In this document: in pieces, positions 6,084 through 58,774 of the stretch | How the letters are laid out: every line of letters begins with the position of its first letter | Numbering within the stretch: the first letter of the stretch is position 1 | Assembly (NCBI GenBank): GCA_944391515.1 | Contig: CALXTW010000001.1 | Span: 1,378-65,377 of the forward strand | DNA length: 64,000 bases | Source of the DNA: an uncultured Alphaproteobacteria bacterium | GTDB taxonomy: Bacteria > Pseudomonadota > Alphaproteobacteria > RF32 > CAG-239 | Direction of reading: 5' to 3' | Notes under the pieces: generated by a model | The model's input: the letters and a program-made list of their open reading frames with translations, nothing else | What the model was told of the DNA's origin: nothing | Databases searched by the model: none | Position numbers and translations under genes: made by a program

Positions 6084-6085
6084 TT

Positions 6086-8109: not shown

Positions 8110-8123
8110 GCAGGAGAGATGTA

Positions 8124-10042: not shown

Positions 10043-10044
10043 GA

Positions 10045-12110: not shown

Positions 12111-14591
<2,481 letters not shown>

Positions 14592-29117: not shown

Positions 29118-29137
29118 TAAATTATCTTCTTTAATTT

Positions 29138-35837: not shown

Positions 35838-36263
35838 TTATGAATTTTCATCACAAGCCAACGCAACTTTATGAACTGCCGATAATTCAAACGGATAGAG
35901 GCGAATTTTTTTTATTTTTGTGCCTAAGAGGGTGATTTTTTCATCTTGAGGCAGGCGTTCTATTTCTTCTAAATTGTTTGTTAATTCAATAACTAAGGAT
36001 ATTTTGGTTTGTTCTTTATGGGGCATTTTAACAATACCTATCCCCCTCACCTCAAGCAAGCCTTGAATTGTTTGAGGGCAAGTGGCGACAACTTCCCCAG
36101 AAATAAGCTCTACATCTGTTCGGTCATCCGCAATTAATTTGGCTTGCTTTTCTTTAATTAAGCGTAGAGCTAGGTCAGATTTTCCGCTTCCTGAAGGACC
36201 TATGAGGAGTATTCCTTTATGGTTTAGCTCAAGACAGGTTGCGTATATATTTTCCATCATCAA
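35838..36263 (-). CDS. hprK: HPr kinase/phosphorylase, short alphaproteobacterial form (C-terminal domain only)
   Basis: P-loop GILLIGPSGSGKSDLAL. LEVRGIGIV signature. 141 aa. Confidence 0.8.
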   Translation of the reverse strand: MMMENIYATCLELNHKGILLIGPSGSGKSDLALRLIKEKQAKLIADDRTDVELISGEVVATCPQTIQGLLEVRGIGIVKMPHKEQTKISLVIELTNNLEEIERLPQDEKITLLGTKIKKIRLYPFELSAVHKVALACDENS

Positions 36264-37992: not shown

Positions 37993-39027
37993 CTAATCTA
38001 TAACCTTAATTGAAAATTTTTCATTGGAAACTGTTGTCGGGGTGACAGGTTCTGATGGCTGAAAGCCCAGACTGTGACGCTCATTCGACTTCTTTTGTTC
38101 CAAAATATCTATAATCATATCCAATTCGGCCGGAGAGGCATATTGTAATACAACCTTACCGCCGCCTTGTTTGCTTGGTGATATTTTAATTCTTAAACCA
38201 AGATTTTTGTTTAAGTCTTTTTCTATGTCCACCAAGTCATTATCTTTGGGTGTTTTTGCTTGAGGCTCTTTTTTGCCTTCTTTTTGTTTGGCAACCAACT
38301 CCTCAACCTGTCGAACACTCAAATCTTTTGATATTATTTGGTTTGCCAAGGCTTCGGCATTTTCTAATCCAACCAAAGCTCTGGCATGACCAGCGCTCAA
38401 TTTGCCTTCTTTTACCAGATGCTGTACTTTTTCAGGAAGATTAAGCAAACGAAGCGTATTTGCAATATGGCTTCTGGATTTACCAATGATTTGCGACAAA
38501 GCCTCTTGCGTGTGCGCAAACTCGTCGATTAATCTTTGTAATCCTTCCGCCTCTTCTATTGCCGACAGATTTTCTCTTAACAAGTTTTCAACTAAAGCCA
38601 CCTCTAAGACTTCTTTATCAGATAAGTCTTTTTCTATGACCGGAACTTTGTCAAGTCCTGCCAATTTTGATGCACGCCAACGGCGTTCACCGGCAATGAT
38701 TTCATACCCTATTCCCGTACGACGAACCAATAATGGTTGCAAGACGCCTTTTTCTTTAATGGAATCGGCAAGAGATTGCAGCGCCTCTTCATCAAACTCC
38801 GTACGCGGTTGAAATTTTCCGGGTTGGAGTAAATCTATATCTACTAAATTTGAACCCGATAAATTCGGTGCCAGTGATGATAAATCTTCATTTTCATTCA
38901 TATCCAAATCGTCATCACCCAAAAGAGCTCCTAAACCTCTACCTAAGCTCTTACGCTTATGAGAATGATTATCCGACGTTTCAATATTATTCAGCATTTT
39001 ATCTATTTCTTTTTCTTCTTCTAGCAT
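37993..39027 (-). CDS. parB: Chromosome partitioning protein ParB
   Basis: ParB box GERRWRASKLAGL and an HTH region. 344 aa. Confidence 0.9.
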   Translation of the reverse strand: MLEEEKEIDKMLNNIETSDNHSHKRKSLGRGLGALLGDDDLDMNENEDLSSLAPNLSGSNLVDIDLLQPGKFQPRTEFDEEALQSLADSIKEKGVLQPLLVRRTGIGYEIIAGERRWRASKLAGLDKVPVIEKDLSDKEVLEVALVENLLRENLSAIEEAEGLQRLIDEFAHTQEALSQIIGKSRSHIANTLRLLNLPEKVQHLVKEGKLSAGHARALVGLENAEALANQIISKDLSVRQVEELVAKQKEGKKEPQAKTPKDNDLVDIEKDLNKNLGLRIKISPSKQGGGKVVLQYASPAELDMIIDILEQKKSNERHSLGFQPSEPVTPTTVSNEKFSIKVID

Positions 39028-39800
39028 GCCATTAATTCCTTCTCTCTTTTCAATACTTCGCCGGTTAAACTAATATATGCTTGGGAGCCGGGGCATTTGA
39101 AATCATAAATCAAAACCGGTTTGCCGTGCGATGGTGCTTCGGAAATTCTGACATTCCGCGGAATAACGGTTTGATAAACCTTTTTACCAAAGAAACTTCT
39201 AACATCATCTTCTACCATTTGAGTCAAATTATTGCGTTTGTCATACATGGTGAGAACGACACCTTGTAATTCAAGTTTCGGATTAAATTTCTTTTTGATT
39301 TGGTTGATGTTGCGAATTAAATCGGTGATACCTTCAAGCGCTAAAAACTCGCATTGCAAAGGCACGATAACGGCATCAGCAGCAACAAGCGCATTTATCG
39401 TAACCAAACTCAATGAAGGAGGGCAATCTATTAATATATAGTCATAATTAACAGCGTCTCTTTGCAGAGCTTTTTTTAGTGCAAATTCACGATTGTCAAT
39501 TTCTACCAATTCAACCTCGGCACCTGCCAAATCAGGCGAAGATGGCACGAGAGAAAAATTAGGAATCTCTGTCCAGACAACAGCCTCAGAAATTCTTTTT
39601 TCGCCAAGCAAAACTTCATAAGAAGAAGCCATACGTCCACTCTTATTAATGCCCATTGAGGTGGTGGCGTTTCCTTGCGGATCCAAATCAACTACCAGTA
39701 CTTTCTTTCCGGCGGCAGCCATAGCTGTTGCAACATTTACCGTCGTGGTCGTTTTACCAACTCCGCCTTTACGGTTGGCAATGGCAATAATTCTTGGCAT
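39021..39800 (-). CDS. parA: Chromosome partitioning ATPase ParA
   Basis: Deviant Walker A IANRKGGVGKTTT. 259 aa. Upstream of parB. Confidence 0.9.
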   Translation of the reverse strand: MPRIIAIANRKGGVGKTTTTVNVATAMAAAGKKVLVVDLDPQGNATTSMGINKSGRMASSYEVLLGEKRISEAVVWTEIPNFSLVPSSPDLAGAEVELVEIDNREFALKKALQRDAVNYDYILIDCPPSLSLVTINALVAADAVIVPLQCEFLALEGITDLIRNINQIKKKFNPKLELQGVVLTMYDKRNNLTQMVEDDVRSFFGKKVYQTVIPRNVRISEAPSHGKPVLIYDFKCPGSQAYISLTGEVLKREKELMAC

Positions 39801-40426
39801 TATTTAACTCCTTTAAGTTTTGCTAATTTGGTTATGACTAAAATGACACCCTCTGACGAAGTTTCGCTCGGGTGAATTTGACACTCAAAACGCCAATGTT
39901 TTTTGGCTTCATCAATTTCTTCTTGATACTTTTTACCTTTGGGAAAAATACATATCGTATCTTTTTTACAAAATGGATATGTATATTCCAACAAATCTTT
40001 CAAAGATGTCATCGCTCGTGAAGTAACAACATCAACTTTGTTTTTGGGAAGCGATTCGATTCTTTGATTGAGAATTTCAACATTTACAGAACAAATTTCC
40101 GACACATGTTTTAAATACAGTGTTTTTTTATTAATACTTTCAATCAAGCTTACTTTTAAATACGGTGTTTTTTCTGCAGCCATAATTGCCAACACCATTC
40201 CGGGGAAACCAGCGCCAGACCCAAAGTCATAAAGGTTTTGCGCTGATTGAGGAATATATTTAAAAAGCTGCATCGAGTCGATAAAGTGACGATTCCACGC
40301 ATCTTCTAAAGAGGATTTACTTACCAAGTTAAACTTATTTTGCCACTCTTGGAGAGAGGTTTCATAAGCTCTTAACTTGAGCATTGTTTCACGTGAAACA
40401 TCATATTTTTGCATTTCGTTTTCCAT
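39800..40426 (-). CDS. rsmG: 16S rRNA (guanine527-N7)-methyltransferase
   Basis: DFGSGAGFPGMVLAI SAM motif. GidB family. Synteny with parAB. Confidence 0.85.
   Translation of the reverse strand: MENEMQKYDVSRETMLKLRAYETSLQEWQNKFNLVSKSSLEDAWNRHFIDSMQLFKYIPQSAQNLYDFGSGAGFPGMVLAIMAAEKTPYLKVSLIESINKKTLYLKHVSEICSVNVEILNQRIESLPKNKVDVVTSRAMTSLKDLLEYTYPFCKKDTICIFPKGKKYQEEIDEAKKHWRFECQIHPSETSSEGVILVITKLAKLKGVK
40110..40123 (+). repeat. Copy of the 14-bp motif TTTAAATACAGTGT (inside rsmG)
   Basis: Exact match. Encodes TLYLK in rsmG. Confidence 0.8.
40155..40168 (+). repeat. Copy of the 14-bp motif, G variant TTTAAATACGGTGT (inside rsmG)
   Basis: One substitution. Encodes TPYLK. Lies 32 nt from the previous copy. 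Confidence 0.8.
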
Positions 40427-40568
40427 ACAAAAATTTATATATTTTTTATAAAAAATTTAAAAGATTTTTATATGAGTTATAAACACATTATTTAAGCAAT
40501 TTTAAAATTATTTTAAATTCAATTAGATAATCATCTATATTGAATCTGTACCTTAATATTTTAAGATT

Positions 40569-40582
40569 TTTAAATACAGTGT
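40569..40582 (+). repeat. Copy of the 14-bp motif TTTAAATACAGTGT (intergenic, rsmG promoter region)
   Basis: Exact match in a non-coding AT-rich spacer. Confidence 0.8.
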
Positions 40583-40586
40583 TTTG

Positions 40587-41387
40587 TTATAAAGACCAGC
40601 GTTTTGCGGTGTTTAATTGCACTAATAAATCCTCCGCCTCGCCAAAATATTGCCCAAGCTGTGAAACAGAATGTGCATCATCGCTTATCAGCAACGGAAT
40701 ATCATTTTTTACCAAATCTTCCATAATCCAGCGGGCAGGGTAGAATGAGCCGATAGAGTTTTTTCCTTTGGTGTTAATTTCGGTCGGCATTTTTTGTACT
40801 TTTAATGCGGTTACGATTCCTTTAATCTCATCAACAAAATCATATTCACCAATAACACCACTCCAGCGGGCGAAATCAATATGAGCTAAAAAGGTAAATT
40901 CACCACTTTCAACAGCTTCACAAATATTATTAAAATGATTACGAAAAAGCTCTTTTATTTTTGTTTCAGACAATCCATATCTCTGAAAATGATAAATCTC
41001 ATAAACCTCTGTTCCGTCTTTATTGGTTACCTGGTGGTTACCGTTTATGAGATAATCAACATCTATCTTTTGCTTAAACTCTCTAAACTCATCCAGCCAA
41101 CCTGGAATTGGAAAATAATCAACCTCAAAACCGGCATAAACTTTAATTTCGGGATTTTCTTCACCAACTTGTCTTATGGCGGCAATATGCTTTTTTACCG
41201 GCTCTAGAGCCTCTTTAAATGATGAAAAATAGGTATATCCTTTGCTCAAAGTTGGATGTATGCTCAAGTGATCGCTAATTCCAATAGCTCTCCAACCCAA
41301 CTTTTTGGCTTGGGCAACCATTTCCGAAATGCTGTTTTTACCATCAGAAAAGGTTGTATGCGTGTGAAGAGAAAAATTTTGTATCAT
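40587..41387 (-). CDS. PHP-domain phosphoesterase (histidinol-phosphatase-like family)
   Basis: LHTHTTFSDG...IGISDH... N-terminal PHP motifs and downstream His/Asp ligands. Translationally coupled to the upstream HD genes. Confidence 0.7.
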   Translation of the reverse strand: MIQNFSLHTHTTFSDGKNSISEMVAQAKKLGWRAIGISDHLSIHPTLSKGYTYFSSFKEALEPVKKHIAAIRQVGEENPEIKVYAGFEVDYFPIPGWLDEFREFKQKIDVDYLINGNHQVTNKDGTEVYEIYHFQRYGLSETKIKELFRNHFNNICEAVESGEFTFLAHIDFARWSGVIGEYDFVDEIKGIVTALKVQKMPTEINTKGKNSIGSFYPARWIMEDLVKNDIPLLISDDAHSVSQLGQYFGEAEDLLVQLNTAKRWSL

Positions 41388-42001
41388 CTCTTTATTCCTA
41401 AAACCTCGTAACTATCGCAATCACATTTATTATCAATATATGTTTTAAGTTTAAATACACCGTTTTTTAGGGTATTTTGCTGCAATTCATTTAGATTATA
41501 CCTTTGAGTTATTCCTGCTATGCGATTTTCTAATGATGTAATTTCCATTCCTTCAAAAAACATATCAGCATATTGGACTATTCGGTCGTAGTCGTCATAC
41601 GTTATATTTTTCAGCAATGTTCTGCATTCTTCCAACCAATGTGGGGGGTATGAAAAATCTTCATTTGAAAAATTCTTATCTTTAAAAGTATGGGTTAAAC
41701 AGATTTTAGCAACATCGGGATAACCATATTCTAATAAGTCATAGTAACCTATTACACCGTGAAATCTATCGTCTTGCTTTTCATCAATTCTCTTTCCGTA
41801 ATCGTGAAGCAGTCCTAAGGCAAAAGCCTTATCTCCATTTAAGCCCATTTTATTTGCTAATCGCGATGAAAAATCGGCAACACCACGTGAGTGAAAAATA
41901 TATTCTTTATCAATTTGCGGGGTTTTTGTTTGATGTTCTCTAGAATAATTTATACCATCTTGCCAAATTTTTTCTGCTTCCTCTTTTGTTGGATAATTCA
42001 T
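41384..42001 (-). CDS. HD-domain phosphohydrolase, paralog 1 (YqeK/HDIG-like)
   Basis: H...HD metal motif (FHSRGVA...LGLLHDYGK). ICLTHTF motif. Conserved C-terminus KCDCDSYEVLGI. Confidence 0.65.
   Translation of the reverse strand: MNYPTKEEAEKIWQDGINYSREHQTKTPQIDKEYIFHSRGVADFSSRLANKMGLNGDKAFALGLLHDYGKRIDEKQDDRFHGVIGYYDLLEYGYPDVAKICLTHTFKDKNFSNEDFSYPPHWLEECRTLLKNITYDDYDRIVQYADMFFEGMEITSLENRIAGITQRYNLNELQQNTLKNGVFKLKTYIDNKCDCDSYEVLGIKR
41442..41455 (+). repeat. Variant copy TTTAAATACACCGT (inside HD paralog 1)
   Basis: The first 9 nt are identical. The second half is the inverted complement of the GGTGT variant. Confidence 0.5.
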
Positions 42002-42621
42002 TATTTTATTCCCAACAATTCATAAATGTTGCAATTACATTTTGCATTAAAATACAACAGTCGATTTTTGATGATATTTGAAAATTGTCTTATCTGATCT
42101 TGACTTATTGGATAACGGTTCGCCAAAGATGAAAAGCGATATTCTATTGTACAATCTGTTCCCATGTCGTTTAGAATGTCTGTTAGTTGAATTAAATAAT
42201 CATAATCATTATATTCAATTTGAGATAAAAACTTCAAACATGAGGAAATATCATCATTACAAACATTATCGCTTTTTACTTCAAAACCTTTTTCATAAAA
42301 ATTATGAGTGATACAAATTCGAGCTATATCGCTCCAACCTTTTGAGCTCATTAACTGATAACCAATCCAGCTATGATGACGATTTTCGGCTTTTTCATCT
42401 CTGATACGTCCACAGTCGTGCAGCAATCCCATTACAAAACAAAGCTCAGGATTCATATCAGATGTGCGAGAGGCTATTTTTTGAGCGTTTTTTGCAACTT
42501 TATTACAGTGCTCTCTAAATGTTTTTTCCCATTCTGGCAAAAAAGGGTAGGGGCTTGAATTGCGCTCTTTGATGACATATTCAAAAAAATCTTCTGCTTC
42601 ATTGATATTTGGATAAGACAT
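42001..42621 (-). CDS. HD-domain phosphohydrolase, paralog 2
   Basis: MGLLHDCGRIRDE, ICITHNF, C-terminus KCNCNIYELLGIK. Start set at MSYPNINEAE by alignment to paralog 1. The ORF track extends to 42672. Confidence 0.6.
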   Translation of the reverse strand: MSYPNINEAEDFFEYVIKERNSSPYPFLPEWEKTFREHCNKVAKNAQKIASRTSDMNPELCFVMGLLHDCGRIRDEKAENRHHSWIGYQLMSSKGWSDIARICITHNFYEKGFEVKSDNVCNDDISSCLKFLSQIEYNDYDYLIQLTDILNDMGTDCTIEYRFSSLANRYPISQDQIRQFSNIIKNRLLYFNAKCNCNIYELLGIK

Positions 42622-42622
42622 T

Positions 42623-43246
42623 TTAATTAACTCCGAGAAGTTTATAAATATCGCAGCCGCATTTGGCATCAAAATAGCTTTTCAACTTAAGAGCTTCGCG
42701 ATATTTTTTCTTTAATTGCACTGTCGGAATTTTATAGGCGTTTTGCAGATATTTCATCCGCTCTTTGAGATTATAGTTTACGCCGATTGATAGTCTGTCA
42801 CAAAGTTGAATCAGGCGGTCGTAATCATCAAAAGGAACTTCTTGTATTAGTTTACGACATTTTCTCATTTCTGAGGGATTGTATGAAGCATATTCTTTTA
42901 TATTGAGCTCTTGCTCATAAAAAGTATGCGTCAAACAGATACGAGCAAGTTCATCATAACCAAGTTTGTTTAGTGCTTTATATCCCTCTAAGCCATGAAA
43001 TTTATCTGAGCGTTCATAATCATAGGTGAGTTTGCCGTAGTCATGAAATAATCCCATAATATAGGCTTTTTGACCATCAATTTCAGGCAAGCGTGAGGCT
43101 ATCATTTCGGCACAAACAGCCACCATCGCAGAGTGGATTCTGAAGTTTTTGGCAATACCAAACTCAAAACGTGAAGATTGCTCACAGCGTTGTTTTAAGG
43201 TTTGTTCAAAAAGTTTCAGAGCTTCTTGCATGGTTGGCATCGTCAT
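42623..43246 (-). CDS. HD-domain phosphohydrolase, paralog 3
   Basis: MGLFHDYGKLT, ICLTHTF, C-terminus KCGCDIYKLLGVN. The start is 4 nt after the mnmG stop. Confidence 0.65.
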   Translation of the reverse strand: MTMPTMQEALKLFEQTLKQRCEQSSRFEFGIAKNFRIHSAMVAVCAEMIASRLPEIDGQKAYIMGLFHDYGKLTYDYERSDKFHGLEGYKALNKLGYDELARICLTHTFYEQELNIKEYASYNPSEMRKCRKLIQEVPFDDYDRLIQLCDRLSIGVNYNLKERMKYLQNAYKIPTVQLKKKYREALKLKSYFDAKCGCDIYKLLGVN

Positions 43247-43249
43247 AGC

Positions 43250-45106
43250 TCACCTCTTTACATAGCCCAAAATTGCAGTTATAGCCGCAGGAGTTACTCC
43301 CGGAATGCGAGATGCTTCTCCTATGGTTGCAGGACGAACTCGAGATAGTTTTTGCACCATTTCACGAGATAAGCCACCGATTTTGGCATAATCAATATCT
43401 TCTCTGATTTTGAGTTTTTCGTCTTTTTGGAAGACTTCAATATCGGCTTGTTGTCTTTTTAGGTATCCTGAATATTTGGCTTCAATCTCAATTTCTTCAT
43501 AAACATCATTGGGAATATTTTGCAACTGCGGCCAGAGAAGGTTGATTGTTTCACGTGAAACACCGTCATAAGACATTACATTGAACGCCGTTCTCTTGGT
43601 GCCGTCACGTTTGGTTTTTATGCCATATTCTTCTAGCTTGTTCGGGTTGATTGTCAAGCTCTCACAAAGCTCACGATATTTATTAATTGCATCGGATTTG
43701 GCTTTAAATACAGTGTATCTTTTTTCACTGACACAGCCAACATTATGGCCAAGTTCGGTTAAACGCAAGTCAGCATTATCTGCTCGCAGCAATAAACGAT
43801 ATTCTGAGCGAGAGGTAAACATACGATAAGGTTCATCAACACCTTGGGTAATTAAGTCATCTACCATAACACCGATATAGGCTTGGCTGCGGTTAATGGT
43901 GAATTTACGTCCTTTGCCCTCGGCATAAAGCGCGGCATTTACACCGGCAAGAAGTCCTTGTGCTGCGGCTTCCTCATAACCGGTCGTACCATTGATTTGT
44001 CCGGCTAAAAACAAGCCTGATACTTTTTTGGTTTCTAGCGTGTTGGTTAGTTCTTGCGGGTCAACATAGTCATATTCAATCGCATAAGCATAACGCAAGA
44101 TTTCAACATCTTCCAAACCCTCAATGGTATGAATAAATTGTTCTTGAACATCGGCCGGCAAGGAGGTTGATATTCCGTTTGGATAAACAACGTCCGTGTT
44201 CAAACCTTCCGGTTCCAAAAAGATTTGATGGCTGGTTCGGTCAGCAAATTTTACCAATTTATCTTCAATACTTGGGCAATATCTTGGACCAACACCTTTG
44301 ATTAACCCTGAAAACAAAGCGCATTTCGAGAAGTTATCTCGGATGATTTTGTGTGTTTTCTCATTTGTATGGGTTATATAACACTGTATTTGCGGATTGG
44401 TGATTTCTTTGGTTAGATAAGAAAAGGGTTGCGGAGGATAATCACCATCTTGGGTATCCAATTTTTCCCAATGTATGGTTTTGCCATTCAAACGGGCAGG
44501 GGTTCCGGTTTTGAGACGACCGACTTTTAGGCCTTTTTGCTTTAAATACGGTGTTATACCTGTGCAGCTTACATCGCCAATTCGGCCACCAATAGAGGTT
44601 TCGTGTCCAACAAACATTACACCGTTTAAGAATGTGCCTGAAGTCAGAACGACGGCTTGGGCTGAGATTTCGCTTCCGTCAGCTAAGATTACACCGGTGA
44701 CTTTATCGCCCTCAAAAAGCAATCCTTCAACAGCGGCTTCAAGAATAGTCAGATTGCTTTGCGCTTGCAAAGCTTCTAACATATATTTTTTATATAATTC
44801 TCGGTCGGCTTGCGCACGCGGGCCTCTAACAGCCGGTCCTTTAGATTGGTTTAGCATACGGAATTGAATACCGCCTTTATCAATCACTCTGCCCATTAAG
44901 CCATCTAAAGCATCAATCTCTCTGACCAAGTGACCTTTGCCAAGTCCCCCAATTGCCGGATTGCATGACATGGCGCCAATGGTGTCAATTTTGTGTGTGA
45001 TGAGCAAAGTGTTTGCTCCGGTTCTGGCCGCTGCGGCGCAGGCTTCACATCCGGCATGTCCGCCGCCAACGACAATTACATCATATTTTTTATTATTGTT
45101 CTTCAT
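43250..45106 (-). CDS. mnmG: tRNA uridine 5-carboxymethylaminomethyl modification enzyme MnmG (GidA)
   Basis: FAD motif [15 protein letters not shown] and conserved GidA core throughout. 618 aa. Confidence 0.95.
43703..43716 (+). repeat. Copy of the 14-bp motif TTTAAATACAGTGT (inside mnmG)
   Basis: Exact match. Encodes YTVFKA. Confidence 0.8.
44541..44554 (+). repeat. Copy of the 14-bp motif, G variant TTTAAATACGGTGT (inside mnmG)
   Basis: Encodes TPYLKQ in a different reading frame from the copy at 43703. Confidence 0.8.
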
Positions 45107-45245
45107 TTATTCGTCCTTTTCTGCCTGTATGACAGATTTTATTTGCGGCTATTTTAACACAAAAAATATTATCAAGCCGTTAACTACCCTCTCATTTAAA
45201 AGCAAAAAACCGCTCTTTTGAGCGGTTTTAGGATAAATATTTGCG

Positions 45246-45623
45246 TTAGAAAACGTGATTTTCAACACAATATTGCCAGTAGTCATAAACTTTTTCTCGC
45301 GGTAATACAGCCGGGCAAAGGATAACAACCGAAAAAATATAACGCCAGCAAAGATAGCGATTGTAAGCACAAAAATCTTTGTTGTTCATCAGATAAGTTG
45401 CTCTATCTTGTAACCAATATCTAAGGTTTGAAATTTCTTCCTTATACATTACTGGGTATGAAGAAAATGCAAAACCTGATTCTTTACTTCTTTGGCAGAG
45501 TTTCTGAAATGCTTCCCGGATTTTTTGAGTGAGCCCTTCTTCATTTTTCAAAAGTTCTTCTTCGGAAAAAACACTAATTCGATTGGTGATGAGTTTTTCC
45601 AATCCGTCTGAATAATTTTCCAT
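45246..45623 (-). CDS. Hypothetical protein (125 aa) inserted between mnmE and mnmG
   Basis: Intact ORF followed by the hairpin aaccgctc-tttt-gagcggtt at 45205-45228, with a T-run in the minus-strand sense. No known motif. Confidence 0.4.
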   Translation of the reverse strand: MENYSDGLEKLITNRISVFSEEELLKNEEGLTQKIREAFQKLCQRSKESGFAFSSYPVMYKEEISNLRYWLQDRATYLMNNKDFCAYNRYLCWRYIFSVVILCPAVLPREKVYDYWQYCVENHVF

Positions 45624-45715
45624 ACAAACAAATTTTTTAAGTTAAACAATAATAAAATATGTGCTTTGGTTAGAGCACATATTTTATTTAAAATCAAGTA
45701 TTTCTTAGCCTTAAA

Positions 45716-47131
45716 TTACTTGCCGATACAAAATGAACCAAAGATTTTATCCAAGATATCATCCACTTCGATACGGCCGGTGATTTTTCCTAATCCACGG
45801 GCGGCCATACGGATGTCTTCGGCGGCAAGCTCAATCTCTTTTTGCAGATTAAAAGCCTGCAGAGCCTCTAATGTTTCATTTAGTGCTTCTCTGTAACGAG
45901 CACGCGTTATCAGCAAATTAGAATTTGATGTAAAGCGGCTTTCAATTTGAGTAGTGATTGCGTTTAAGAGTTTTTCCAAACCTTCTTTGGGTTTGGCGGC
46001 AATAACTATGCAGCCGCTGTTTACTAATTCTTGTCTTGTATCTTCGGAAATGCAATCAGCCTTATTGGCAACAAAAAGCATTTTATCAGAAATTGTTTTT
46101 TTAAGATTATCAAAGATGTGAACACTGTCTTGTGAGGCATCAAATAAACATAATACCAAGTCGGCTTCTTTGATTTTATCATAAGCAATTTCTATTCCGC
46201 GTTTTTCAATAGCGTCTTCAACTTCTCTTAAACCGGCCGTGTCGGTAAACATTACCGGATAGCCTTTTAGGTCTAAATGAACATCAACAGCATCACGCGT
46301 GGTGCCGGCTATATTTGAAACTATCGCCGCCTCGCGATTGACAATCGCATTTAATAAGCTCGACTTTCCGGCATTGGGAGGGCCAACAATTACAACCCTA
46401 AAACCTTCTCTTAGGCGCTCACCAATATTATCTCCTTTTAGGTGTTCGGAGATTTTATGTGCAAGTTTAAATACAGTGTCCTCAAGTTTAAATACAGTGT
46501 CTTGAGGAATATCTTCATCAGGAAAATCAATATAAGCCTCCAGATAAGCCATAACCTGCAAGAGTTCTTCACGCCAACCTTCATAAAGATTTTTTAATCC
46601 GCCTTCCATTTGGCGCATGGCATATTTTTGCTGTTCAGAGGTTTCGGCATCTATCAAGTCTGCCAATCCTTCTGCCTGAGTTAAATCCATTTTGCCGTTA
46701 TAAAAAGCGCGTTTGGAATATTCACCCGGTTCGGCCAGACGATAACCTTCTATCTGACTTAATGAGGCAAGGACTCCGGAAATTACGGCCTTGGAGCCGT
46801 GAATCTGTAATTCGACGATATCTTCTCCCGTGAAAGAATATGGTGCCTTAAAATACAAAACCAGGCTTTTATCAAGTAATCTTTTTTCAGGCAAAGAATA
46901 AATATTGGTAAAATAGGCATAACGGGCTTTGATTGTATCAACTTTAATGTCCGTCATCTGTTCTATGACCTTGAGAGCTTTGTCTCCGGAAATTCGAATA
47001 ACCGCTACTCCTGATTTTCCAAATACGGTCGATAGAGCATAAATTGTTTTGTTATCCATTTTTTTATCCTGTTTGATTTTGATTTGGGCTGAATATAACA
47101 CAAAATTCTTAAAAAAACAGCAAATTCTCAT
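45716..47131 (-). CDS. mnmE: tRNA modification GTPase MnmE (TrmE)
   Basis: G1 GPPNAGKSSLLN. G3 DTAGLR. C-terminal FCIGK. Contains an in-frame tandem DTVFKLE/DTVFKLA repeat encoded by the 21-bp duplication. Confidence 0.9.
   Translation of the reverse strand: MRICCFFKNFVLYSAQIKIKQDKKMDNKTIYALSTVFGKSGVAVIRISGDKALKVIEQMTDIKVDTIKARYAYFTNIYSLPEKRLLDKSLVLYFKAPYSFTGEDIVELQIHGSKAVISGVLASLSQIEGYRLAEPGEYSKRAFYNGKMDLTQAEGLADLIDAETSEQQKYAMRQMEGGLKNLYEGWREELLQVMAYLEAYIDFPDEDIPQDTVFKLEDTVFKLAHKISEHLKGDNIGERLREGFRVVIVGPPNAGKSSLLNAIVNREAAIVSNIAGTTRDAVDVHLDLKGYPVMFTDTAGLREVEDAIEKRGIEIAYDKIKEADLVLCLFDASQDSVHIFDNLKKTISDKMLFVANKADCISEDTRQELVNSGCIVIAAKPKEGLEKLLNAITTQIESRFTSNSNLLITRARYREALNETLEALQAFNLQKEIELAAEDIRMAARGLGKITGRIEVDDILDKIFGSFCIGK
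46462..46503 (+). repeat. 21-bp direct tandem duplication (caagtttaaatacagtgtcyt x2), each unit carrying the 14-bp motif, inside mnmE
   Basis: Units at 46462-46482 and 46483-46503. Motif copies at 46466-46479 and 46487-46500. Encodes the in-frame DTVFKLE/DTVFKLA repeat. Confidence 0.85.
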
Positions 47132-47248
47132 AAAAGGCGTTTTTTTGACTTTGGAGCGATTTTTTACTTTTGTTTAAGTGTTTCTTTATAAAATAGTTGA
47201 AATTCTTTTCTGTGAGCTTTATACGGACTCACTTTTTTCTAATGAAAG

Positions 47249-47932
47249 TTGCAAATGAATACATGTTCTAAAAAATTAATTATTTGGGATTTTGACGGTG
47301 TTTTGGCTGATACTGAAAAATTATGGATTGAAAATCGCCGGTTAATGGTCAACAAAGTTTTCGGACTAAATTGGGATTTTGAAACAACAAATCATTATCT
47401 TGGGGGAATGAGCGATAAAACCAAACGCATGAATTTGGATAAAATCGGTTTGAAGACAGATGATAAATTTTGGGAAGATAGCTTAGCCATGGATATGAAA
47501 ATTATGGCTGAAGGGTTTTCTCCTGTCGAAGGGGTGGAAGAAATTTTGCAATGCAAAGATTTTTTACACTGTGTGGCCACGGGCGGAATCTTGTCAAAAA
47601 GTATTGAAAAACTCAAAACAATCGGCTTTTGGAATAAATATATCTCACAAAAAAATCTCTTTACCGCCGATATGGTTGAACATGGAAAACCAGAGCCGGA
47701 GTTATTTCTTTTGGCTGCTCAAAACATAGGGGTTGAGCCGAAAGACTGCGTGGTAATTGAGGATTCACTTGCTGGTATGACTGCCGGATTAAGGGCAGGG
47801 ATGTGTGTGGTGGCTTTTGTGGGCTGTGAAATGAACAAATCTCCGCAGTATATTGAAAAAATCAAACAACTCGGCGTGAAACATATTTTCGAAAATATGC
47901 AACAATTTAAAGAATTTTTGGGGTTAATTTAA
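47249..47932 (+). CDS. HAD-superfamily hydrolase, subfamily IA (beta-phosphoglucomutase-like)
   Basis: Motif I LIIWDFDGVLADTE. Later GKPEPE and VIEDSLAG motifs. Confidence 0.75.
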   Translation: MQMNTCSKKLIIWDFDGVLADTEKLWIENRRLMVNKVFGLNWDFETTNHYLGGMSDKTKRMNLDKIGLKTDDKFWEDSLAMDMKIMAEGFSPVEGVEEILQCKDFLHCVATGGILSKSIEKLKTIGFWNKYISQKNLFTADMVEHGKPEPELFLLAAQNIGVEPKDCVVIEDSLAGMTAGLRAGMCVVAFVGCEMNKSPQYIEKIKQLGVKHIFENMQQFKEFLGLI

Positions 47933-48004
47933 TATTTGACAAAATACACAAAAAGTGGCATAACTCTCGGAAAATATTAATTATTAACGCTAAATTATTT
48001 AATT

Positions 48005-48430
48005 ATGAAACCTGAAGAAATTTTAAGATGGATTGTAAACCTTTGTGCTACTTTATTGCTTGTATGGGGGTTAAAAACCGAATTTGCGCGAGTTTATATG
48101 TTTTGCGCCATGATTTTGGCTGTTAGTTATATTTGTTTATATAACAGGTCTTCTCAAAATCCAAAGAATATTCCGTGGTTTAATACTACTATTTCATACC
48201 TGGCTTTTTGCTGTTTTATGGCTTTGCCTGGGTTAATGAACTTAGCTCAAAATATTACAAGTTCTATTGTGATATTTTTGGTCATTGCCGGTTTATTGTG
48301 CTTGTTAGATGCATATGTGCCGGTAATTGTTTATCAATTAGGGTATCGCTCAACCAACAAGCCGCGATATCCGGCAACAATGTTGGTTTTTATCGTAGCT
48401 GCCTTTTTGGCTGTGGTGATGATTAGTTAA
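48005..48430 (+). CDS. Hypothetical small integral membrane protein (141 aa)
   Basis: Four hydrophobic segments. No known motif. Confidence 0.45.
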   Translation: MKPEEILRWIVNLCATLLLVWGLKTEFARVYMFCAMILAVSYICLYNRSSQNPKNIPWFNTTISYLAFCCFMALPGLMNLAQNITSSIVIFLVIAGLLCLLDAYVPVIVYQLGYRSTNKPRYPATMLVFIVAAFLAVVMIS

Positions 48431-48431
48431 A

Positions 48432-48459
48432 AAAGCCTCCCAATCGAGAGGCTTTTTAA
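48432..48459 (+). terminator. Bidirectional terminator between the membrane protein gene and rho
   Basis: aaagcctc ccaatcga gaggcttt followed by a T-run. Confidence 0.5.
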
Positions 48460-48462
48460 TTT

Positions 48463-49716
48463 TTAAGAATTCATTGTATTGAAGAAATCTTGATTGTCTT
48501 TGCTTTGTTTTAATTTATCAAGTAAGAATTCCATACCGTCGGTCATGCCCATTTGCATTAATACACGGCGCAAAACCCACATTTTAGATAAGGTGGCTTT
48601 ATCAACCAAAAGCTCTTCTTTTCTGGTTCCCGAACGAGTGATATCAATCGTTGGGAATAACCGTTTATCGGTTAATTTTCTATCCAAAATGATTTCTGAG
48701 TTACCGGTTCCTTTAAACTCTTCAAAAATGACTTCATCCATTCTTGAACCGGTATCAATCAATGCTGTGGCAATAATGGTTAAAGAACCGCCTTCTTCAA
48801 CATTGCGCGCTGCACCCAAAATACGTTTCGGACGTTGCAGAGCATTGGCGTCAACACCACCGGTCAAGACCTTACCTGATGATGGAATTACCGTATTATA
48901 GGCTCGGCCTAAACGGGTGATGGAATCGAGCAAAATGACAACATCTTTTTTGTTTTCAACCAAACGTTTGGCTTTTTCAATTACCATTTCAGCAACTTGA
49001 ACATGGCGAGAAGCCGGCTCATCAAAGGTTGAAGAAATAACTTCACCCTTAACTGAACGGGTCATATCGGTTACTTCTTCCGGACGTTCATCAATCAGTA
49101 AAACCATCAAATAAGCCTCAGGATGATTTTGTGCAATAGCGTGAGCAATGTTTTGCAACATAACGGTTTTACCGGTTCTTGGCGGAGCAACAATAAGTCC
49201 TCGTTGACCTTTACCTTGCGGCGCAATCAAGTCAATCACACGACAAGTGTAGTCTTTGTCTCCGCAAATAATGTCAAAATTTAACTTTTCGGTCGGATAT
49301 AATGGGGTCAAGTTATCAAAATTGACGCGTAATTTTGATTTTTCAGGATCATCAAAGTTAATGGTGTTAATTTTGGTTAAGGCAAAATAACGCTCGTTAT
49401 CTTTTGGACCTCTGATTTCTCCTTCAACCGTATCGCCGGTACGAAGACCGAATTTTTTAACTTGCGAAGGAGAAACGTAAATATCATCAGGACCTGCAAG
49501 ATAATTGGATTCAGCAGATCTTAAAAAACCAAAACCATCAGGCATAACTTCTATTGTACCTTCGCCTGATATGATAATATCATCATCTGCTAATTTTTTG
49601 AGAATGGCAAACATCAAATCTTGTTTGCGCATGGAAGAGGCATCTTCTATTCCTAAATCTTCCGCTTGAGTTAATAACTCCGTTGGAGACTTTTGCTTGA
49701 GTTCTTTTAAATTCAT
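48463..49716 (-). CDS. rho: Transcription termination factor Rho
   Basis: N-terminal RNA-binding domain. Walker [16 protein letters not shown]. RecA-like core. 417 aa. Confidence 0.95.
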
Positions 49717-54083: not shown

Positions 54084-55103
54084 ATGGTCAAAAATACTGA
54101 AAAAAAACAAGAAATTGATGTTGCACAACCTAATCAAACAAAATCTCGGCATATTATGTTTAAGACTTTTTCTTTAATTGTTGTTTGTATGGTTGGTTAT
54201 GGCGTATGGCAAAATCCGGCTTTGGTGCAAAAAATGACGAATTGGGTTAAGACCAGTTCTGTTCAAGACGAAAATGCTTACCAAAGAGAAAATATGCTCT
54301 ATCAGCAGATTTCTTTATTGCAAAACCAAATAGCTCAGTTGCAAATGCAGGTTAATTCTTTGCCGCAACAATCAAATGCTGAGTTGGATTTGTCTCAAGT
54401 TGAAGATAAAATTTCTGCCATCGAACAACAAAATTTAAACGTGATTAATTCTAAAGCAGATGTGGCTACCGTGTTGGGTATTGTTACCCGTTTGGATAAA
54501 ATTGAAGAAAAATTAGATACTTTAGCAAAAATCAGTGACGATGGTGCTTTGGTTTTAACTGCTACCATGATGGTGCGTGAATGTGCCGATAATGGGGTTA
54601 ATTTTGTTTATGAGGCCGAAATCTTAAATCAATTAGCTAAAGATGATAAAGATATTCAAAATGATGTCGCAACTATTTTGCGTTATGCAAATGAAGGTGT
54701 GATGTCTCAAAATGAATTAAAAACCCAATTCCAAAAAATTTATAAAAACTTGGTAAAGGTTAGTGAAAAACAAAGTTTGGAAGGCAAAAGCTGGAAAGAA
54801 AAACTTAATATTAAACTCAGCGAAGTCGTGAAGGTTAAAAGAGTTAATGATTTGGCTGTTCCACAAAGTGAACAACAAGATAAAAATATGTTCAAAAAAG
54901 TGAAAAATTTGGTTGATGCAGGTAATTTGCGTCAGGCTTTGGATGAATTACACCAGATGAATAATCCGGTTGTTACCGATAACGAAATTTTAAAAGTTTG
55001 GATGGATAAAGCTCAGGCTAAGGTTAATTTTAATCAAGCTATTGCCAATATTTCAGCTCATTCGTTGGCTTTGATGAAGGTTAACAGCTTAAAAAATAAT
55101 TAG
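54084..55103 (+). CDS. Hypothetical membrane-anchored coiled-coil protein
   Basis: Single N-terminal TM helix (FKTFSLIVVCMVGYGVW) followed by Q/L-rich coiled-coil heptads. Confidence 0.45.
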   Translation: MVKNTEKKQEIDVAQPNQTKSRHIMFKTFSLIVVCMVGYGVWQNPALVQKMTNWVKTSSVQDENAYQRENMLYQQISLLQNQIAQLQMQVNSLPQQSNAELDLSQVEDKISAIEQQNLNVINSKADVATVLGIVTRLDKIEEKLDTLAKISDDGALVLTATMMVRECADNGVNFVYEAEILNQLAKDDKDIQNDVATILRYANEGVMSQNELKTQFQKIYKNLVKVSEKQSLEGKSWKEKLNIKLSEVVKVKRVNDLAVPQSEQQDKNMFKKVKNLVDAGNLRQALDELHQMNNPVVTDNEILKVWMDKAQAKVNFNQAIANISAHSLALMKVNSLKNN

Positions 55104-55120
55104 TTTAGAGGATTGAGAAA

Positions 55121-56518
55121 ATGGATAAATCTGGTTTAAAAAAAGTTTGGGCTGATAAATTTAGTCATGTTCCTCAGGTTTTGGAAAATGTGAAAAAAGT
55201 TAGTTCGGCGGCAACGGCTTTTAATGCAAATATTGATGCCGTTCTTAAAATTAAAGGTTCTAAAATTGCTGAGTTGGCACAAGCCTCCGGTTTGAATTTG
55301 AAAAAACTTTCCGAAACGGGAAATAATAAACTTTTATTCGGAAGCGATGTGATTAAAGGTATTTTTAAGTGCTTTACCAGAGGTATTGCCGAAGAGTGGT
55401 TGACCGAAGATAAAATTGTTTTTGATTGGATGGTTCAACATTTGGGATATGACCGCTTGCAAATGGGTGGACAAGGTGGAATCGTTGCCAATGTTTTGGC
55501 CGTGGTCGGTGTGAATAAAGTTTTTGCTCATGCGAACTCTTTACCAAAACTCCAAGCTGAACAATTTTTGAAGTTGGATAATTTGGTATCTTTTGATGAT
55601 GAAGGAAAAGAAAAACCTGCTTACCTGATTGATAGAAATGGAGATATTCCTTTGATTCACTGGATTATTGAATTTGATAAAGGGGATAGCTTTACTTTTG
55701 AGGGGGAAACTTTTGTTTGCCCAAAATCTAACCGATTTATTGCAACTTATGACCCGTTGAATTTGCATTTGGTGATGGATAAAAGCTTTGTTGAAGCAAC
55801 CACTATCCAAAAAATGGATTATGTGATTTTGTCGGGTTTTCATGCCTTAACCAAGCAAAATGACGGGGTTAACCTTATTAAGAAATCTTTGCCGATTATT
55901 GAAAATTGGAAAGAAAATGGTGATATTGTCCATTTGGAAATTGCTTCTACTCAAGATATAGCCGTGCGTAAAGCTATTGTTGATGAAGTTGCTTCAAAAG
56001 TTGATTCTGTCGGAATTAATGAGCGCGAAGCTATTGATGTTTTGGAAGTTATCGGTTGTGAAGATTTGGCTCAAAAGTGTAATGAAGATACACATAGCAA
56101 AAATTTGTTTGAGGCGCTATTGGCGATTAAAAGCAAACTTAAAACGCCTCGAATCCAACTTCATATGTTTGGTTTGTATATGACCTTGCAAGATAAAGGT
56201 TTCAAAATTACACCTGAGGCTAATTTAAGGGGTATGATGTTGGCTGCAACCATTGCTGCCAGCAAGGCCGGAACTGGAAATATTCATAATAAAGAAAACC
56301 TTTTATGGGCTCATGGGCAAAAAGTTGCCGATGTGGGATTAGATGAGTTAGCTGATTTGGCAGAATTGCTTAAGTCTCCGACTTTGCTTGAAACAGGTAT
56401 AACTGAAGTTGAGGGTTATGATTTGATTGCTTTGCCGACAATCTTGGTTGAAAAACCTTTAACCTTGGTGGGTATGGGAGATACTATCTCTTCTTTATCG
56501 CTCATTGGGGCTAGATAA
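55121..56518 (+). CDS. ADP-dependent sugar kinase family protein (ADP-glucokinase/phosphofructokinase-like, ribokinase superfamily)
   Basis: QMGGQGGIVANVLA (GG..A.AN motif). VHLEIAST (HxE[F/I]AS motif). GINEREAID (NExE motif). C-terminal GMGDTISS (GxGD anion hole). Confidence 0.6.
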   Translation: MDKSGLKKVWADKFSHVPQVLENVKKVSSAATAFNANIDAVLKIKGSKIAELAQASGLNLKKLSETGNNKLLFGSDVIKGIFKCFTRGIAEEWLTEDKIVFDWMVQHLGYDRLQMGGQGGIVANVLAVVGVNKVFAHANSLPKLQAEQFLKLDNLVSFDDEGKEKPAYLIDRNGDIPLIHWIIEFDKGDSFTFEGETFVCPKSNRFIATYDPLNLHLVMDKSFVEATTIQKMDYVILSGFHALTKQNDGVNLIKKSLPIIENWKENGDIVHLEIASTQDIAVRKAIVDEVASKVDSVGINEREAIDVLEVIGCEDLAQKCNEDTHSKNLFEALLAIKSKLKTPRIQLHMFGLYMTLQDKGFKITPEANLRGMMLAATIAASKAGTGNIHNKENLLWAHGQKVADVGLDELADLAELLKSPTLLETGITEVEGYDLIALPTILVEKPLTLVGMGDTISSLSLIGAR

Positions 56519-56531
56519 AACTAAAAAAGAA

Positions 56532-56556
56532 AAGGCTGCAATTTGCAGCCTTTTTT
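56532..56556 (+). terminator. Bidirectional terminator between the kinase gene and aroK
   Basis: aaaggctgcaa tttgcagcctttt followed by a T-run. Confidence 0.5.
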
Positions 56557-58236: not shown

Positions 58237-58318
58237 GTTGATTTGTCTTGTATTTTGTTTTATAGTTCAACCATAAGTAAATGTTTTGGGCACTATATGC
58301 CCGTTAGAAGGAGTATTT

Positions 58319-58774
58319 ATGGTGAAGAAAAATAAAAGAGGTCGGTTGGATGACGGTAGCCCGAATCCGGTTGATGTGGCGGTTGGTAAAAAGATTTGTG
58401 AAAGAAGAAATGAATTAGGTTGGTCTATGGAGAAATTGTCTTCGGCTCTTGGTTTAACCTTTCAACAAATTCAAAAATATGAAAAAGGGGCTAACCGTGT
58501 AAGTGCTAGTAGATTATATGATATAAGCAAAGTTTTGGGGGTTGGTATAGATTATTTTTTTGCAGATATTGACGATGAGGCTGCCAAAAAAAGTCCAAGA
58601 CAAGTATTATCAAGTGAGATATTGGAGAAATTTGATGATCCGATGACTTGGGAAGAAAGTAAAACTTTGGCACAAGCCTATTATCAGATTAAAGATAGAG
58701 AGTTGGCGCGGACTATGCTGGAGTTGATGATGAGTATTTCTTCTTCAAGCGATAAGGAAAACGAGTTATTTTAG
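58319..58774 (+). CDS. XRE-family HTH transcriptional regulator, paralog of 15130..15576
   Basis: LGWSMEKLSSALGLTFQQIQKYEKGANRV. RBS agaaggag. Start set at MVKKNKRG. Confidence 0.7.
   Translation: MVKKNKRGRLDDGSPNPVDVAVGKKICERRNELGWSMEKLSSALGLTFQQIQKYEKGANRVSASRLYDISKVLGVGIDYFFADIDDEAAKKSPRQVLSSEILEKFDDPMTWEESKTLAQAYYQIKDRELARTMLELMMSISSSSDKENELF

Follow-up and report, generated by a model that had tools for sequence, protein, structure and literature searches.

A predicted ADP-dependent glucokinase, inherited by descent, in uncultured gut Alphaproteobacteria

Introduction

The stretch of uncultured alphaproteobacterial DNA analysed here (64,000 nucleotides; hereafter the window) encodes an intact ADP-dependent sugar kinase whose predicted sugar pocket is that of a glucokinase (GK) rather than a phosphofructokinase (PFK). 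We consider it probable, at about 0.62, that the protein is an ADP-dependent glucokinase (EC 2.7.1.147-type) that phosphorylates glucose, and that its gene, the last of an operon, was acquired a single time in the distant past and has been passed on vertically since. Textbooks treat ADP-dependent sugar kinases as markers of modified glycolysis in archaea and of the enigmatic ADPGK found in animals, and an ADP-primed entry into the Embden-Meyerhof pathway has been regarded until now as an archaeal and eukaryotic peculiarity. The kinase adds to a known family and reveals no new kind of system, and much of what follows is ordinary annotation; what emerges is a coherent bacterial clade of the ADP_PFK_GK family, fixed by descent in widespread uncultured gut Alphaproteobacteria and carrying a pocket that is predicted to be of the glucokinase type.

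Results

The gene encodes a full-length member of the ADP_PFK_GK family

An intact open reading frame with an ATG start occupies positions 55121..56518 of the forward strand, where the original prediction had placed it, and specifies a protein of 465 amino acids. The assignment of this protein to the family of ADP-dependent sugar kinases, for which an HMM search had been proposed as a check, is borne out by Pfam: PF04587 (ADP_PFK_GK) matches with a score of 230.4 bits (cutoff 27; E=4.4e-68) and spans profile positions 3-429 of 430, while the Pfam search returned no PfkB match and thus no placement among the ATP-dependent PfkB/ribokinase enzymes. Thirteen ADP-dependent kinases in the PDB match the sequence at E values of 1e-35 to 1e-57 (6c8z, 2.7e-57, is the best; 1ua4 gives 6.4e-51). 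An AlphaFold model (pLDDT 92.2, pTM 0.88) shows the family's two-domain ribokinase-like architecture with an alpha/beta lid and superposes in Foldseek onto ADP-GK and ADP-PFK structures with TM scores of 0.74-0.87, as against 0.31-0.43, at 9-14% identity, for ATP-dependent ribokinase/PfkB enzymes. The latter share with the kinase the superfamily core, a Rossmann-like large domain and the Asp of the GXGD motif, but are about 300-350 amino acids long and lack the motifs of the ADP-dependent family. The protein is a genuine, intact and full-length member of that family.

Comparison with characterised enzymes places the kinase within the family fold and at some distance in sequence. The ADP-glucokinases of Thermococcales (P. 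horikoshii, 1L2L/5O0J; P. furiosus, 1UA4; T. litoralis, 1GC5/4B8S) have the same two-domain fold (TM 0.75-0.87) and share the NxNxD, GGQ, HXE, NXXE and GXGD motifs and the essential Arg; the kinase differs from them in being just 26-31% identical, in its bacterial mesophilic host, in scoring under the NCBIfam ADP-GK cutoffs and in belonging to a separate, purely bacterial clade. AncMsPFK (6C8Z, 6XIO), the reconstructed ADP-PFK/GK ancestor of Methanosarcinales, has the same catalytic machinery (TM 0.79-0.87). Eukaryotic ADPGK (mouse, 5CCF) is also a family member, and its fold agrees (Foldseek E 8.5e-22, TM 0.67), but it is very distant in sequence, matching only over residues 179-305, at E 2e-8.

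Equivalog models from NCBIfam give no finer assignment. TIGR02045 (ADP-PFK) scores the kinase at 215 bits (cutoff 408), and the ADP-GK models NF010641 and NF010642 at 213.7 and 211.2 bits against cutoffs of 554 and 387, respectively, so that the protein exceeds none of the three cutoffs and the GK and PFK models tie at 211-215 bits, an outcome that in itself counts against a glucokinase reading. Since we take NF010641 and NF010642 to represent archaeal sequences, we read the low scores as divergence rather than as a different function. Because scores from these models do not tell GK and PFK apart, residue signatures and the family tree were used for that distinction.

Catalytic residues are intact and invariant

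All four motifs quoted in the original prediction are present in the translation (MGGQGGIVANVLA at residue 115, HLEIAST at 271, GINEREA at 298 and GMGDTISS at 451), and the roles given to them were right. One label needs correction: GINEREA does hold a Mg-binding motif of the family, but this is NXXE (N300...E303) rather than 'NExE'; HLE represents HXE (PMC7948494). By motif alignment, HXE (H271-L-E273, 55931..55939) and NXXE (N300-E-R-E303, 56018..56029) are predicted to bind Mg-ADP, and D454 of GXGD (G451-M-G-D454, 56471..56482) is the predicted catalytic base; these and the pocket features described below are all on the forward strand. Every catalytic residue aligns with the family, a point on which the assignment could have failed, and D454, H271/E273, N300/E303 and R205 are invariant across 119 close homologs (64-91% identity to the kinase), a pattern of purifying conservation.

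These same residues bear on the phosphoryl donor. Donor preference is not reliably readable from sequence, and the searchable literature yielded no published assay of a bacterial family member; the bacterial clade might therefore have turned to ATP, another NDP or polyphosphate and be 'ADP-dependent' in name only. We regard such a switch as very improbable, given that HXE, NXXE, R205 and GXGD, with which the family positions Mg-ADP, are all invariant and that the fold is far closer to ADP-dependent than to ATP-dependent enzymes of the ribokinase family. So far as we know, the donor in all characterised PF04587 enzymes is ADP or a different NDP rather than ATP, and ADP is the donor that we predict for the kinase.

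The predicted sugar pocket carries a glucokinase-type signature

Residue equivalences were taken from an alignment to 6c8z and residue roles from the published analysis of AncMsPFK (PMC7948494). According to that analysis, conservation of K179, N181 and R212 is confined to PFK and bifunctional enzymes and that of E90 to GK and bifunctional enzymes, and specific glucokinases carry His at the N181 position (PMC7948494). The kinase retains the sugar-binding NxNxD motif (N35-x-N37-x-D39, 55223..55237, equivalent to N32/N34/D36), E92 at the E90 position (55394..55396) and G116-G117-Q118 (55466..55474, equivalent to G114/G115/Q116), which is predicted to contact the sugar ring. In L178-I-H180 (55652..55660), Leu replaces the PFK Lys and a GK-type His replaces N181, as judged from the alignment and from family-wide signatures; the segment from R205 to D211 (55733..55753) keeps the essential Arg (R206 in AncMsPFK) and has Asp in place of the PFK-specific R212; and H241 (55841..55843) stands at the Q244 position. 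The pocket residues, among them the NxNxD residues, E92 and H180, are invariant in the 119 homologs except for position 178, which is Leu or Met. The kinase thus has the Glu and His of glucokinases and neither the Lys nor the Arg of phosphofructokinases, as do the Thermococcales ADP-glucokinases. Judged by these residues, its sugar pocket is glucokinase-type and not phosphofructokinase-type, which sharpens the earlier 'ADP-GK/ADP-PFK-like' description while leaving the family call in place.

This signature nearly coincides with that of the glucose-specific ADP-GK of P. horikoshii (1L2L). Across nine pocket positions, the kinase reads N-N-D-E-Q-L-H-D-H and the P. horikoshii enzyme N-N-D-E-Q-C-H-D-H, so that eight of the nine are equal and only position 178 (Leu versus Cys) differs. 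Asp at the D211 position recurs in the Pyrococcus glucokinases, and the P. horikoshii enzyme also has His at the H241 position (in 'SGLHPL'). The enzymes of T. litoralis, P. furiosus and M. jannaschii have Gln there, a difference that counts against a glucokinase reading. The positions listed as contacting glucose in MjPFK/GK and TlGK are all either conserved in the kinase or as in the P. horikoshii enzyme. A subgroup with an 'H-V-D/GGT' signature (P0152 and relatives) had been considered as eukaryotic ADPGK that might validate His241; its match to mouse ADPGK reaches only 1.7e-13, and because it proved not to be eukaryotic ADPGK, the P. horikoshii enzyme was taken as the His241 reference.

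The same comparison weighs on whether the kinase might instead serve the third step of glycolysis, as an ADP-dependent phosphofructokinase or as an enzyme with genuine dual PFK/GK activity. Its best single PDB match, by sequence and by Foldseek E-value (rank 1), is the ancestral Methanosarcinales ADP-PFK 6c8z, an observation at odds with a glucokinase; TIGR02045 is its top NCBIfam model, and PGAP names its homologs 'ADP-dependent glucokinase/phosphofructokinase'. AncMsPFK, however, has K179, N181 and R212 and shows a strong preference for fructose-6-phosphate (F6P) (PMC7948494), whereas the residues of the kinase at these phosphate-binding positions are Leu (Met in some homologs), His and Asp; substitution of the first alone (K179A) raises the KM of AncMsPFK for F6P about 1000-fold (PMC7948494). 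The kinase moreover reaches roughly half the TIGR02045 cutoff, level with its scores against the GK models, and falls outside the K-x-N/R clade of the tree (see below). We accordingly judge a PFK or bifunctional enzyme very improbable and favor a glucokinase.

The kinase belongs to a well-supported bacterial clade

In neighbor-joining trees built on Kimura distances, the kinase lies inside a bacterial clade whose monophyly has the support of 199-200 of 200 bootstraps and which includes copies from Bacteroidota, Myxococcota and Opitutales. Within the family tree it groups with the H-type (GK-like) half, apart from the K-x-N/R half (72% bootstrap), and the alphaproteobacterial copies cluster together (62%). 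These trees single out no archaeal GK-type group as sister to the bacterial clade. The kinase is not close to the eukaryotic ADPGK branch, which published work derives from Asgard archaea (PMC11976288). When species-representative bacterial genomes were scanned with a pattern, 141 stretches proved to hold relatives; the view that the family occurs only sporadically in bacteria is accordingly right as to its patchiness across phyla, but understates a well-supported bacterial clade.

The gene is an old, vertically inherited part of a conserved block

The original prediction saw a gene that sits alone, with its own terminator, between a coiled-coil membrane protein gene and aroK, and took this as consistent with horizontal acquisition. 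Both neighbors are present. The upstream, co-oriented gene (mem339; 54084..55103, forward strand; 339 amino acids) ends 17 nt before the kinase ATG, and a Shine-Dalgarno-like GAGGA, read from the sequence (55109..55113, forward strand), lies within this gap, 7 nt 5' of the ATG. A terminator scan of the interval found none, and the adjacency of the two genes is conserved in relatives; the kinase gene does not stand alone. Downstream, the convergent neighbor is aroK (Pfam SKI, 5.6e-42), and the strong intrinsic terminator between the two stop codons (56528..56556; 13-bp stem with T-runs on both strands) is bidirectional, so that the kinase gene does end at a terminator, albeit one shared with aroK. 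The kinase gene and mem339 probably form one operon, with mem339 first and the kinase last. A promoter scan gave 12 sites where 10.6 were expected, too near to chance to speak for or against an internal promoter of the kinase gene.

mem339 has an N-terminal transmembrane segment followed by a coiled coil. Its architecture and a HemY-like neighbor allow a guess at a Mic60- or HemX-like protein, which stays a guess because Pfam assigned no family even at relaxed thresholds, giving no Mitofilin match and nothing beyond noise.

The arrangement extends well beyond this genome. In about 75 species-level alphaproteobacterial genomes, nth and tsaD, facing away, are followed by the membrane protein gene and then the kinase gene in the opposite orientation, and this block persists down to 52%, even 42%, identity of the kinase. 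The GC content of the kinase gene (0.373) and its GC3 (0.311) lie inside the range of the neighboring genes, and scans for Rfam families and tRNAs gave no match close to the kinase gene and no tRNA gene anywhere in the window. A genomic island is not what these features describe. One might still propose a recent horizontal insertion into this genome, since the family is chiefly archaeal, a strong terminator bounds the gene and 0.8 kb downstream there is a gene for a tyrosine recombinase; but the recombinase is a housekeeping XerD-type gene, syntenic with aroK in many relatives, and with the gene order, native composition, lack of tRNA genes and clustering of alphaproteobacterial copies all against it, we consider such an insertion extremely improbable. 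Because the block is conserved, the composition native and the window free of tRNA genes, acquisition was ancient and the gene is not an isolated one: any transfer from archaea is older than this alphaproteobacterial lineage. Synteny, composition, the missing tRNA genes and the clustering in the tree together mark the kinase gene as old and as handed down vertically within a whole lineage of uncultured gut Alphaproteobacteria.

Glucose as the predicted substrate and a possible role in the gut

In the mechanism that we propose, the protein would be a cytoplasmic kinase of the ribokinase superfamily that converts glucose and Mg-ADP to glucose-6-phosphate and AMP. The hexose would be held by N35, N37, D39, E92, G117, Q118, H180 and H241, Mg-ADP would be positioned by R205 and the glutamates of HXE and NXXE, and D454 would act as catalytic base. 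An ancestor of this gut-associated lineage would have gained the gene once, long ago; free glucose, imported from the gut or freed by glycosidases, is probably phosphorylated by the kinase, and, more speculatively, as in the low-ATP role that the original prediction suggested, ADP could in this way prime glycolysis while ATP runs short. A literature search for metabolic reconstructions of these gut Alphaproteobacteria returned nothing usable.

It is possible, though we put it forward only tentatively, that glucose in an entire order-level lineage of these gut bacteria is phosphorylated by the kinase alone, and that Bacteroidota, Myxococcota and Verrucomicrobiota are served by related copies. 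In that event, ADP-primed, 'modified' Embden-Meyerhof entry would be fixed, and of physiological importance, in bacteria common in animal guts, and no bacterial ADP-glucokinase would have been defined before this clade. The clade also bears on how gut anaerobes prime glycolysis at low energy charge. For enzymologists, the clade offers a mesophilic bacterial target, and for annotation, the name 'glucokinase/phosphofructokinase' can be sharpened to glucokinase-type.

The gene contexts of homologs speak to the choice of sugar. A copy in Myxococcota follows a GH31 alpha-glucosidase gene at a distance of 4 nt, another bacterial copy has phosphoglucomutase (PGM) and glucose-6-phosphate isomerase (PGI) genes within about 3 kb, and the nearest archaeal relative (P0133) sits between glycogen synthase and a GH57 enzyme; by analogy, alpha-glucosidase, PGM/PGI and glycogen-enzyme neighbors point to glucose and glucose-6-phosphate. 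Other contexts leave room for an enzyme that acts with ADP on a different unphosphorylated sugar (galactose, mannose, glucosamine or another diet- or host-derived hexose), in which case the clade would represent a new specificity. Bacteroidales homologs adjoin Y_Y_Y hybrid sensor kinases of the sort that characterise glycan loci, and in Rhodothermaceae a copy comes after a probable SusC fragment (without a Pfam match), SusD and a melibiase/GH97-like glycosidase in a locus resembling those for polysaccharide utilisation. The depth and distinctness of the bacterial clade (200/200), its low identity to characterised enzymes and its scores below every equivalog cutoff would also fit a new specificity. 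Set against these are the known glucose contacts, conserved or as in the P. horikoshii glucokinase, and the glucose-linked neighbors of further homologs, and we consider a different sugar unlikely, with glucose the preferred substrate. The melibiase-like neighbor of the Rhodothermaceae copy could yield galactose instead of glucose.

Assignment to the ADP-dependent kinase family

The ATG-initiated ORF at 55121-56518 (+) encodes a 465-aa protein in which the MGGQGG (aa 115), HLEIAST (aa 271), GINEREA (aa 298) and GMGDTISS (aa 451) motifs, along with the flanking genes and the terminator, were located as the original prediction described them. Its placement of the protein among the ADP-dependent sugar kinases is borne out: the Pfam ADP_PFK_GK model (PF04587) matches end to end with 230 bits (E 4.4e-68), and PDB sequence matches comprise 13 distinct ADP-dependent glucokinases (GKs), phosphofructokinases (PFKs) and reconstructed ancestors (E 5e-35 to 3e-57), with mouse ADPGK at only 2e-8. 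AlphaFold2, supplied with 45 family sequences, gave a model (mean pLDDT 92.2, pTM 0.88) whose top 22 Foldseek matches in the PDB were all ADP-dependent kinases, with TM scores of 0.70-0.87 for archaeal and ancestral enzymes and 0.65-0.67 for mouse ADPGK. ATP-dependent ribokinase-family and adenosine kinases come next (TM <=0.43, identity 9-14%); the Pfam, PDB and Foldseek results thus do not assign the protein to an ATP-dependent PfkB/ribokinase subfamily, the outcome that the original prediction had named as its refutation. Across 119 full-length homologues (64-91% identity), 159 of the 465 positions are >=98% conserved, indicating clear purifying selection. We consider it almost certain that the protein is a functional member of the family; an altered phosphoryl donor, in favour of which we found no evidence, is highly improbable.

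The occurrence of this family in bacteria is already acknowledged in an earlier study (PMC7948494), and PGAP names the bacterial homologues 'ADP-dependent glucokinase/phosphofructokinase'. In a literature search reaching only a minority of subscription journals, neither an enzyme assay of any bacterial member nor an account of the gut alphaproteobacterial clade turned up. What is added here is well-supported family membership, an annotation sharpened to glucokinase-type and a corrected account of horizontal transfer.

The sugar pocket is of glucokinase type

The kinase scores 215 bits against the NCBIfam ADP-PFK model (TIGR02045, cutoff 408) and 214 and 211 bits against the ADP-GK models (cutoffs 554 and 387). 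Because these scores cannot separate GK from PFK, we turned to residue rules from experiments on AncMsPFK, the reconstructed ancestor of Methanosarcinales ADP-PFK/GK (PDB 6C8Z, 6XIO; PMC7948494). In that work N32, D36 and R206 are conserved throughout the family; conservation of K179, N181 and R212 is limited to PFK and bifunctional enzymes, and that of E90 to GK and bifunctional enzymes; replacing K179, which touches the fructose-6-P phosphate, with Ala raises KM about 1000-fold; and specific glucokinases carry His at the N181 position (PMC7948494).

Counting equivalences along the phmmer alignment (PDB chain offset +21), N32, N34 and D36 of AncMsPFK correspond to N35, N37 and D39 of the kinase, G114-G115-Q116 to G116-G117-Q118, R206 to R205, Q244 to H241, E282 of the HXE motif to E273, D310 and E313 to N300 and E303, and D471 to D454. 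At the discriminating positions, E90 is retained as E92, N181 is replaced by H180, and K179 and R212 by L178 and D211. Thus, the GK-type Glu and His are present and both PFK phosphate-binding basic residues are absent. L178, H180 and D211 contradict a PFK or bifunctional enzyme, which we judge very unlikely. The glucose-specific Pyrococcus horikoshii ADP-GK (1L2L) reads N-N-D-E-Q-C-H-D-H at nine pocket positions and the window kinase N-N-D-E-Q-L-H-D-H, differing only by Leu for Cys; H241 is therefore no anomaly, as P. horikoshii also has His there. These catalytic and pocket residues are invariant in the 119 homologues with a single exception: position 178 varies between Leu and Met.

The pocket residues point to an ADP-dependent glucokinase, with a probability of roughly 0.6. 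That the substrate is instead another hexose or an aminosugar is unlikely but still credible, since the bacterial clade is deep, has no assayed member in the literature searched and scores under the equivalog cutoffs, and one homologue adjoins a melibiase-like enzyme.

As a glucokinase, the protein would convert glucose and Mg-ADP to glucose-6-P and AMP, with D454 deprotonating O6. On the pattern of solved structures, R205, E273 and E303 would position Mg-ADP via water molecules, and hinge residues N35, N37, D39 and H180 would drive domain closure. Since 2 ADP and ATP + AMP are interconvertible through adenylate kinase, the reaction would bring no net energy saving. ADP use could allow glycolysis to be primed under ATP depletion, the classical rationale for this kinase family.

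Genomic and metabolic context

In the Myxococcota copy, only 4 nt separate the kinase from a GH31 alpha-glucosidase gene upstream of it, and another bacterial copy has phosphoglucomutase and glucose-6-P isomerase within ~3 kb. The Rhodothermaceae gene is preceded by a probable SusC fragment (no Pfam match), SusD and a melibiase/GH97-like glycosidase, and those of Bacteroidales sit beside Y_Y_Y hybrid sensor kinases; an archaeal relative (P0133) is flanked by genes for glycogen synthase and a GH57 enzyme. Such neighbourhoods suit a kinase capturing free hexose, above all glucose, and not a fructose-6-P kinase.

The window itself, read by eye, is a replication-origin neighbourhood of otherwise housekeeping genes, with the dnaA 3' end, dnaN, recF and gyrB at 1-14591 and parB, parA, gidB, gidA, mnmE and rho at 37993-49716; cumulative GC skew reverses its direction twice, at about 32 kb and about 47 kb. 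It encodes a cofactor-independent phosphoglycerate mutase, indicating that the organism has at least some of the steps of glycolysis or gluconeogenesis. An EIIA-Man component (3508-3906) and a short HprK C-terminal-domain kinase (35838-36263) constitute a regulatory PTS typical of Alphaproteobacteria, and no sugar-transporting EIIBC was seen within the 64 kb. Were the kinase the sole hexokinase of a widespread gut lineage, its significance would rise; otherwise its interest is modest.

A deep bacterial clade

Only 598 family members emerged when 1.84 billion representatives at 50% identity were scanned exhaustively with HMMER. Aligned with 117 full-length representatives, the window protein belongs to a set that divides into a K-x-N...R type (the PFK/bifunctional signature) and an x-x-H...D type (the GK signature), a split with 72% bootstrap in a neighbour-joining tree. 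The window protein falls in the GK-type half, in a 12-sequence clade with 11 representatives (200/200 bootstraps) whose named members are Alphaproteobacteria, Myxococcota and Opitutales; at the level of genome loci, Bacteroidales, Marinilabiliales, Porphyromonadaceae and Rhodothermaceae are represented as well. Heimdallarchaeota and Promethearchaeota are among the adjacent lineages, and P0133, which scores highest of the sequences beyond the clade, comes from a contig that we read as archaeal because of its ribosomal protein S27 and Kae1-like TsaD/HypF_C_2 genes. In a more densely sampled tree, the alphaproteobacterial copies that share the synteny all fall into one group (62% bootstrap), those of Bacteroidota form a separate clade (200/200), and the bacterial clade as a whole recurs in 199/200 replicates.

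Elsewhere in the family, the P0218/P0289 cluster forms a separate PFK-type clade (K-x-N, Tyr at the E90 position) that has Bacillota members and occurs on 30 contigs, so bacteria hold at least two independent branches of 'archaeal' PF04587. The P0152 group, in the GK half, has an altered sugar motif (H-V/T-D for N-N-D, GGT for GGQ, Gln for the GK Glu); we rejected its identification as eukaryotic ADPGK, and its substrate may be neither glucose nor fructose-6-P.

Transcription unit, synteny and origin

The original prediction held the gene to be isolated, with its own terminator, and took this as consistent with horizontal acquisition. A bidirectional terminator (56528-56556, 13-bp stem) and the convergent aroK do lie downstream. 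The kinase is not isolated, as it starts 17 nt past the stop codon of mem339 (54084-55103, +; 339 aa, N-terminal TM segment and coiled coil, no Pfam family), is preceded by its own ribosome-binding site (GAGGA), and is not separated from mem339 by a terminator. The kinase gene probably closes an operon whose transcription starts in the region where tsaD and mem339 diverge; a promoter scan was uninformative.

Contigs from gut metagenomes encode the identical protein, and species-representative genomes labelled uncultured (alpha)proteobacteria carry copies with 97-98% identity. More distant carriers include Proteobacteria bacterium CAG:495, 'Acetobacter sp. 46_36', Candidatus Scatocola faecigallinarum and many MAGs from human, rumen, deer, chicken and mouse. 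NCBI places Ca. Scatocola in Rhodospirillales; in GTDB the group corresponds to order RF32. When the proteins encoded around the kinase in the window were compared by tblastn with 86 loci, the order nth<-tsaD<- / ->mem339->kinase recurred in essentially all alphaproteobacterial loci, with kinase identity down to 52%, and in the clade's most divergent member (P0128, 42%); downstream, aroK-xerD-ksgA is likewise syntenic in many relatives. One contig labelled Bacteroidaceae (L085, CAVIWQ010000053.1) has the alphaproteobacterial nth-tsaD-mem-kinase order and a tsaD 72% identical to the window copy, and is probably a mis-binned alphaproteobacterial contig.

Most relatives carry, between mem339 and the kinase, a gene whose ~480-aa product combines TM, TPR and zinc-ribbon regions and weakly matches HemY_N (E 0.0065); mem339 counterpart and HemY-like gene lie at 3517-4527 and 4520-5980 in locus L012 and at 3399-4403 and 4510-5949 in L059. 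The architecture of these two proteins recalls the Mic60/HemX-like and HemY-like proteins that are paired in Alphaproteobacteria. In the window's sublineage the HemY-like gene has been lost.

Because the family's centre of gravity is archaeal, archaea-to-bacteria transfer is likely. That transfer predates diversification of the alphaproteobacterial lineage and is no trait peculiar to the window genome: synteny extends to 42% identity, the gene's composition (GC 0.373, GC3 0.311) lies within that of its neighbours (GC 0.33-0.43, GC3 0.29-0.38), and the 64-kb window has no tRNA gene. A recent genomic island, contradicted by both synteny and composition, is exceedingly improbable.

Other features of the window

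The region between gidB and gidA (40587-43246, -) encodes a PHP-domain protein and, in tandem, three HD-domain paralogues of 205, 223 and 207 aa; in L012 a related HD-domain gene (7584-8237) sits directly downstream of the kinase. Adjacent ORFs of 431 and 634 aa (8747-10042 and 10045-11949, -), between a 208-aa ORF and gyrB, have no Pfam match at E<=0.001. Two paralogous XRE/HTH_3 regulators adjoining polA (15130-15576) and xerD (58286-58774) share an unusual N-terminal 'RGRLxDGSxNPxD' stretch. The window's only Rfam match is a bacterial small SRP RNA (RF00169, 58.9 bits) at 29137-29232 (-), upstream of dnaX.
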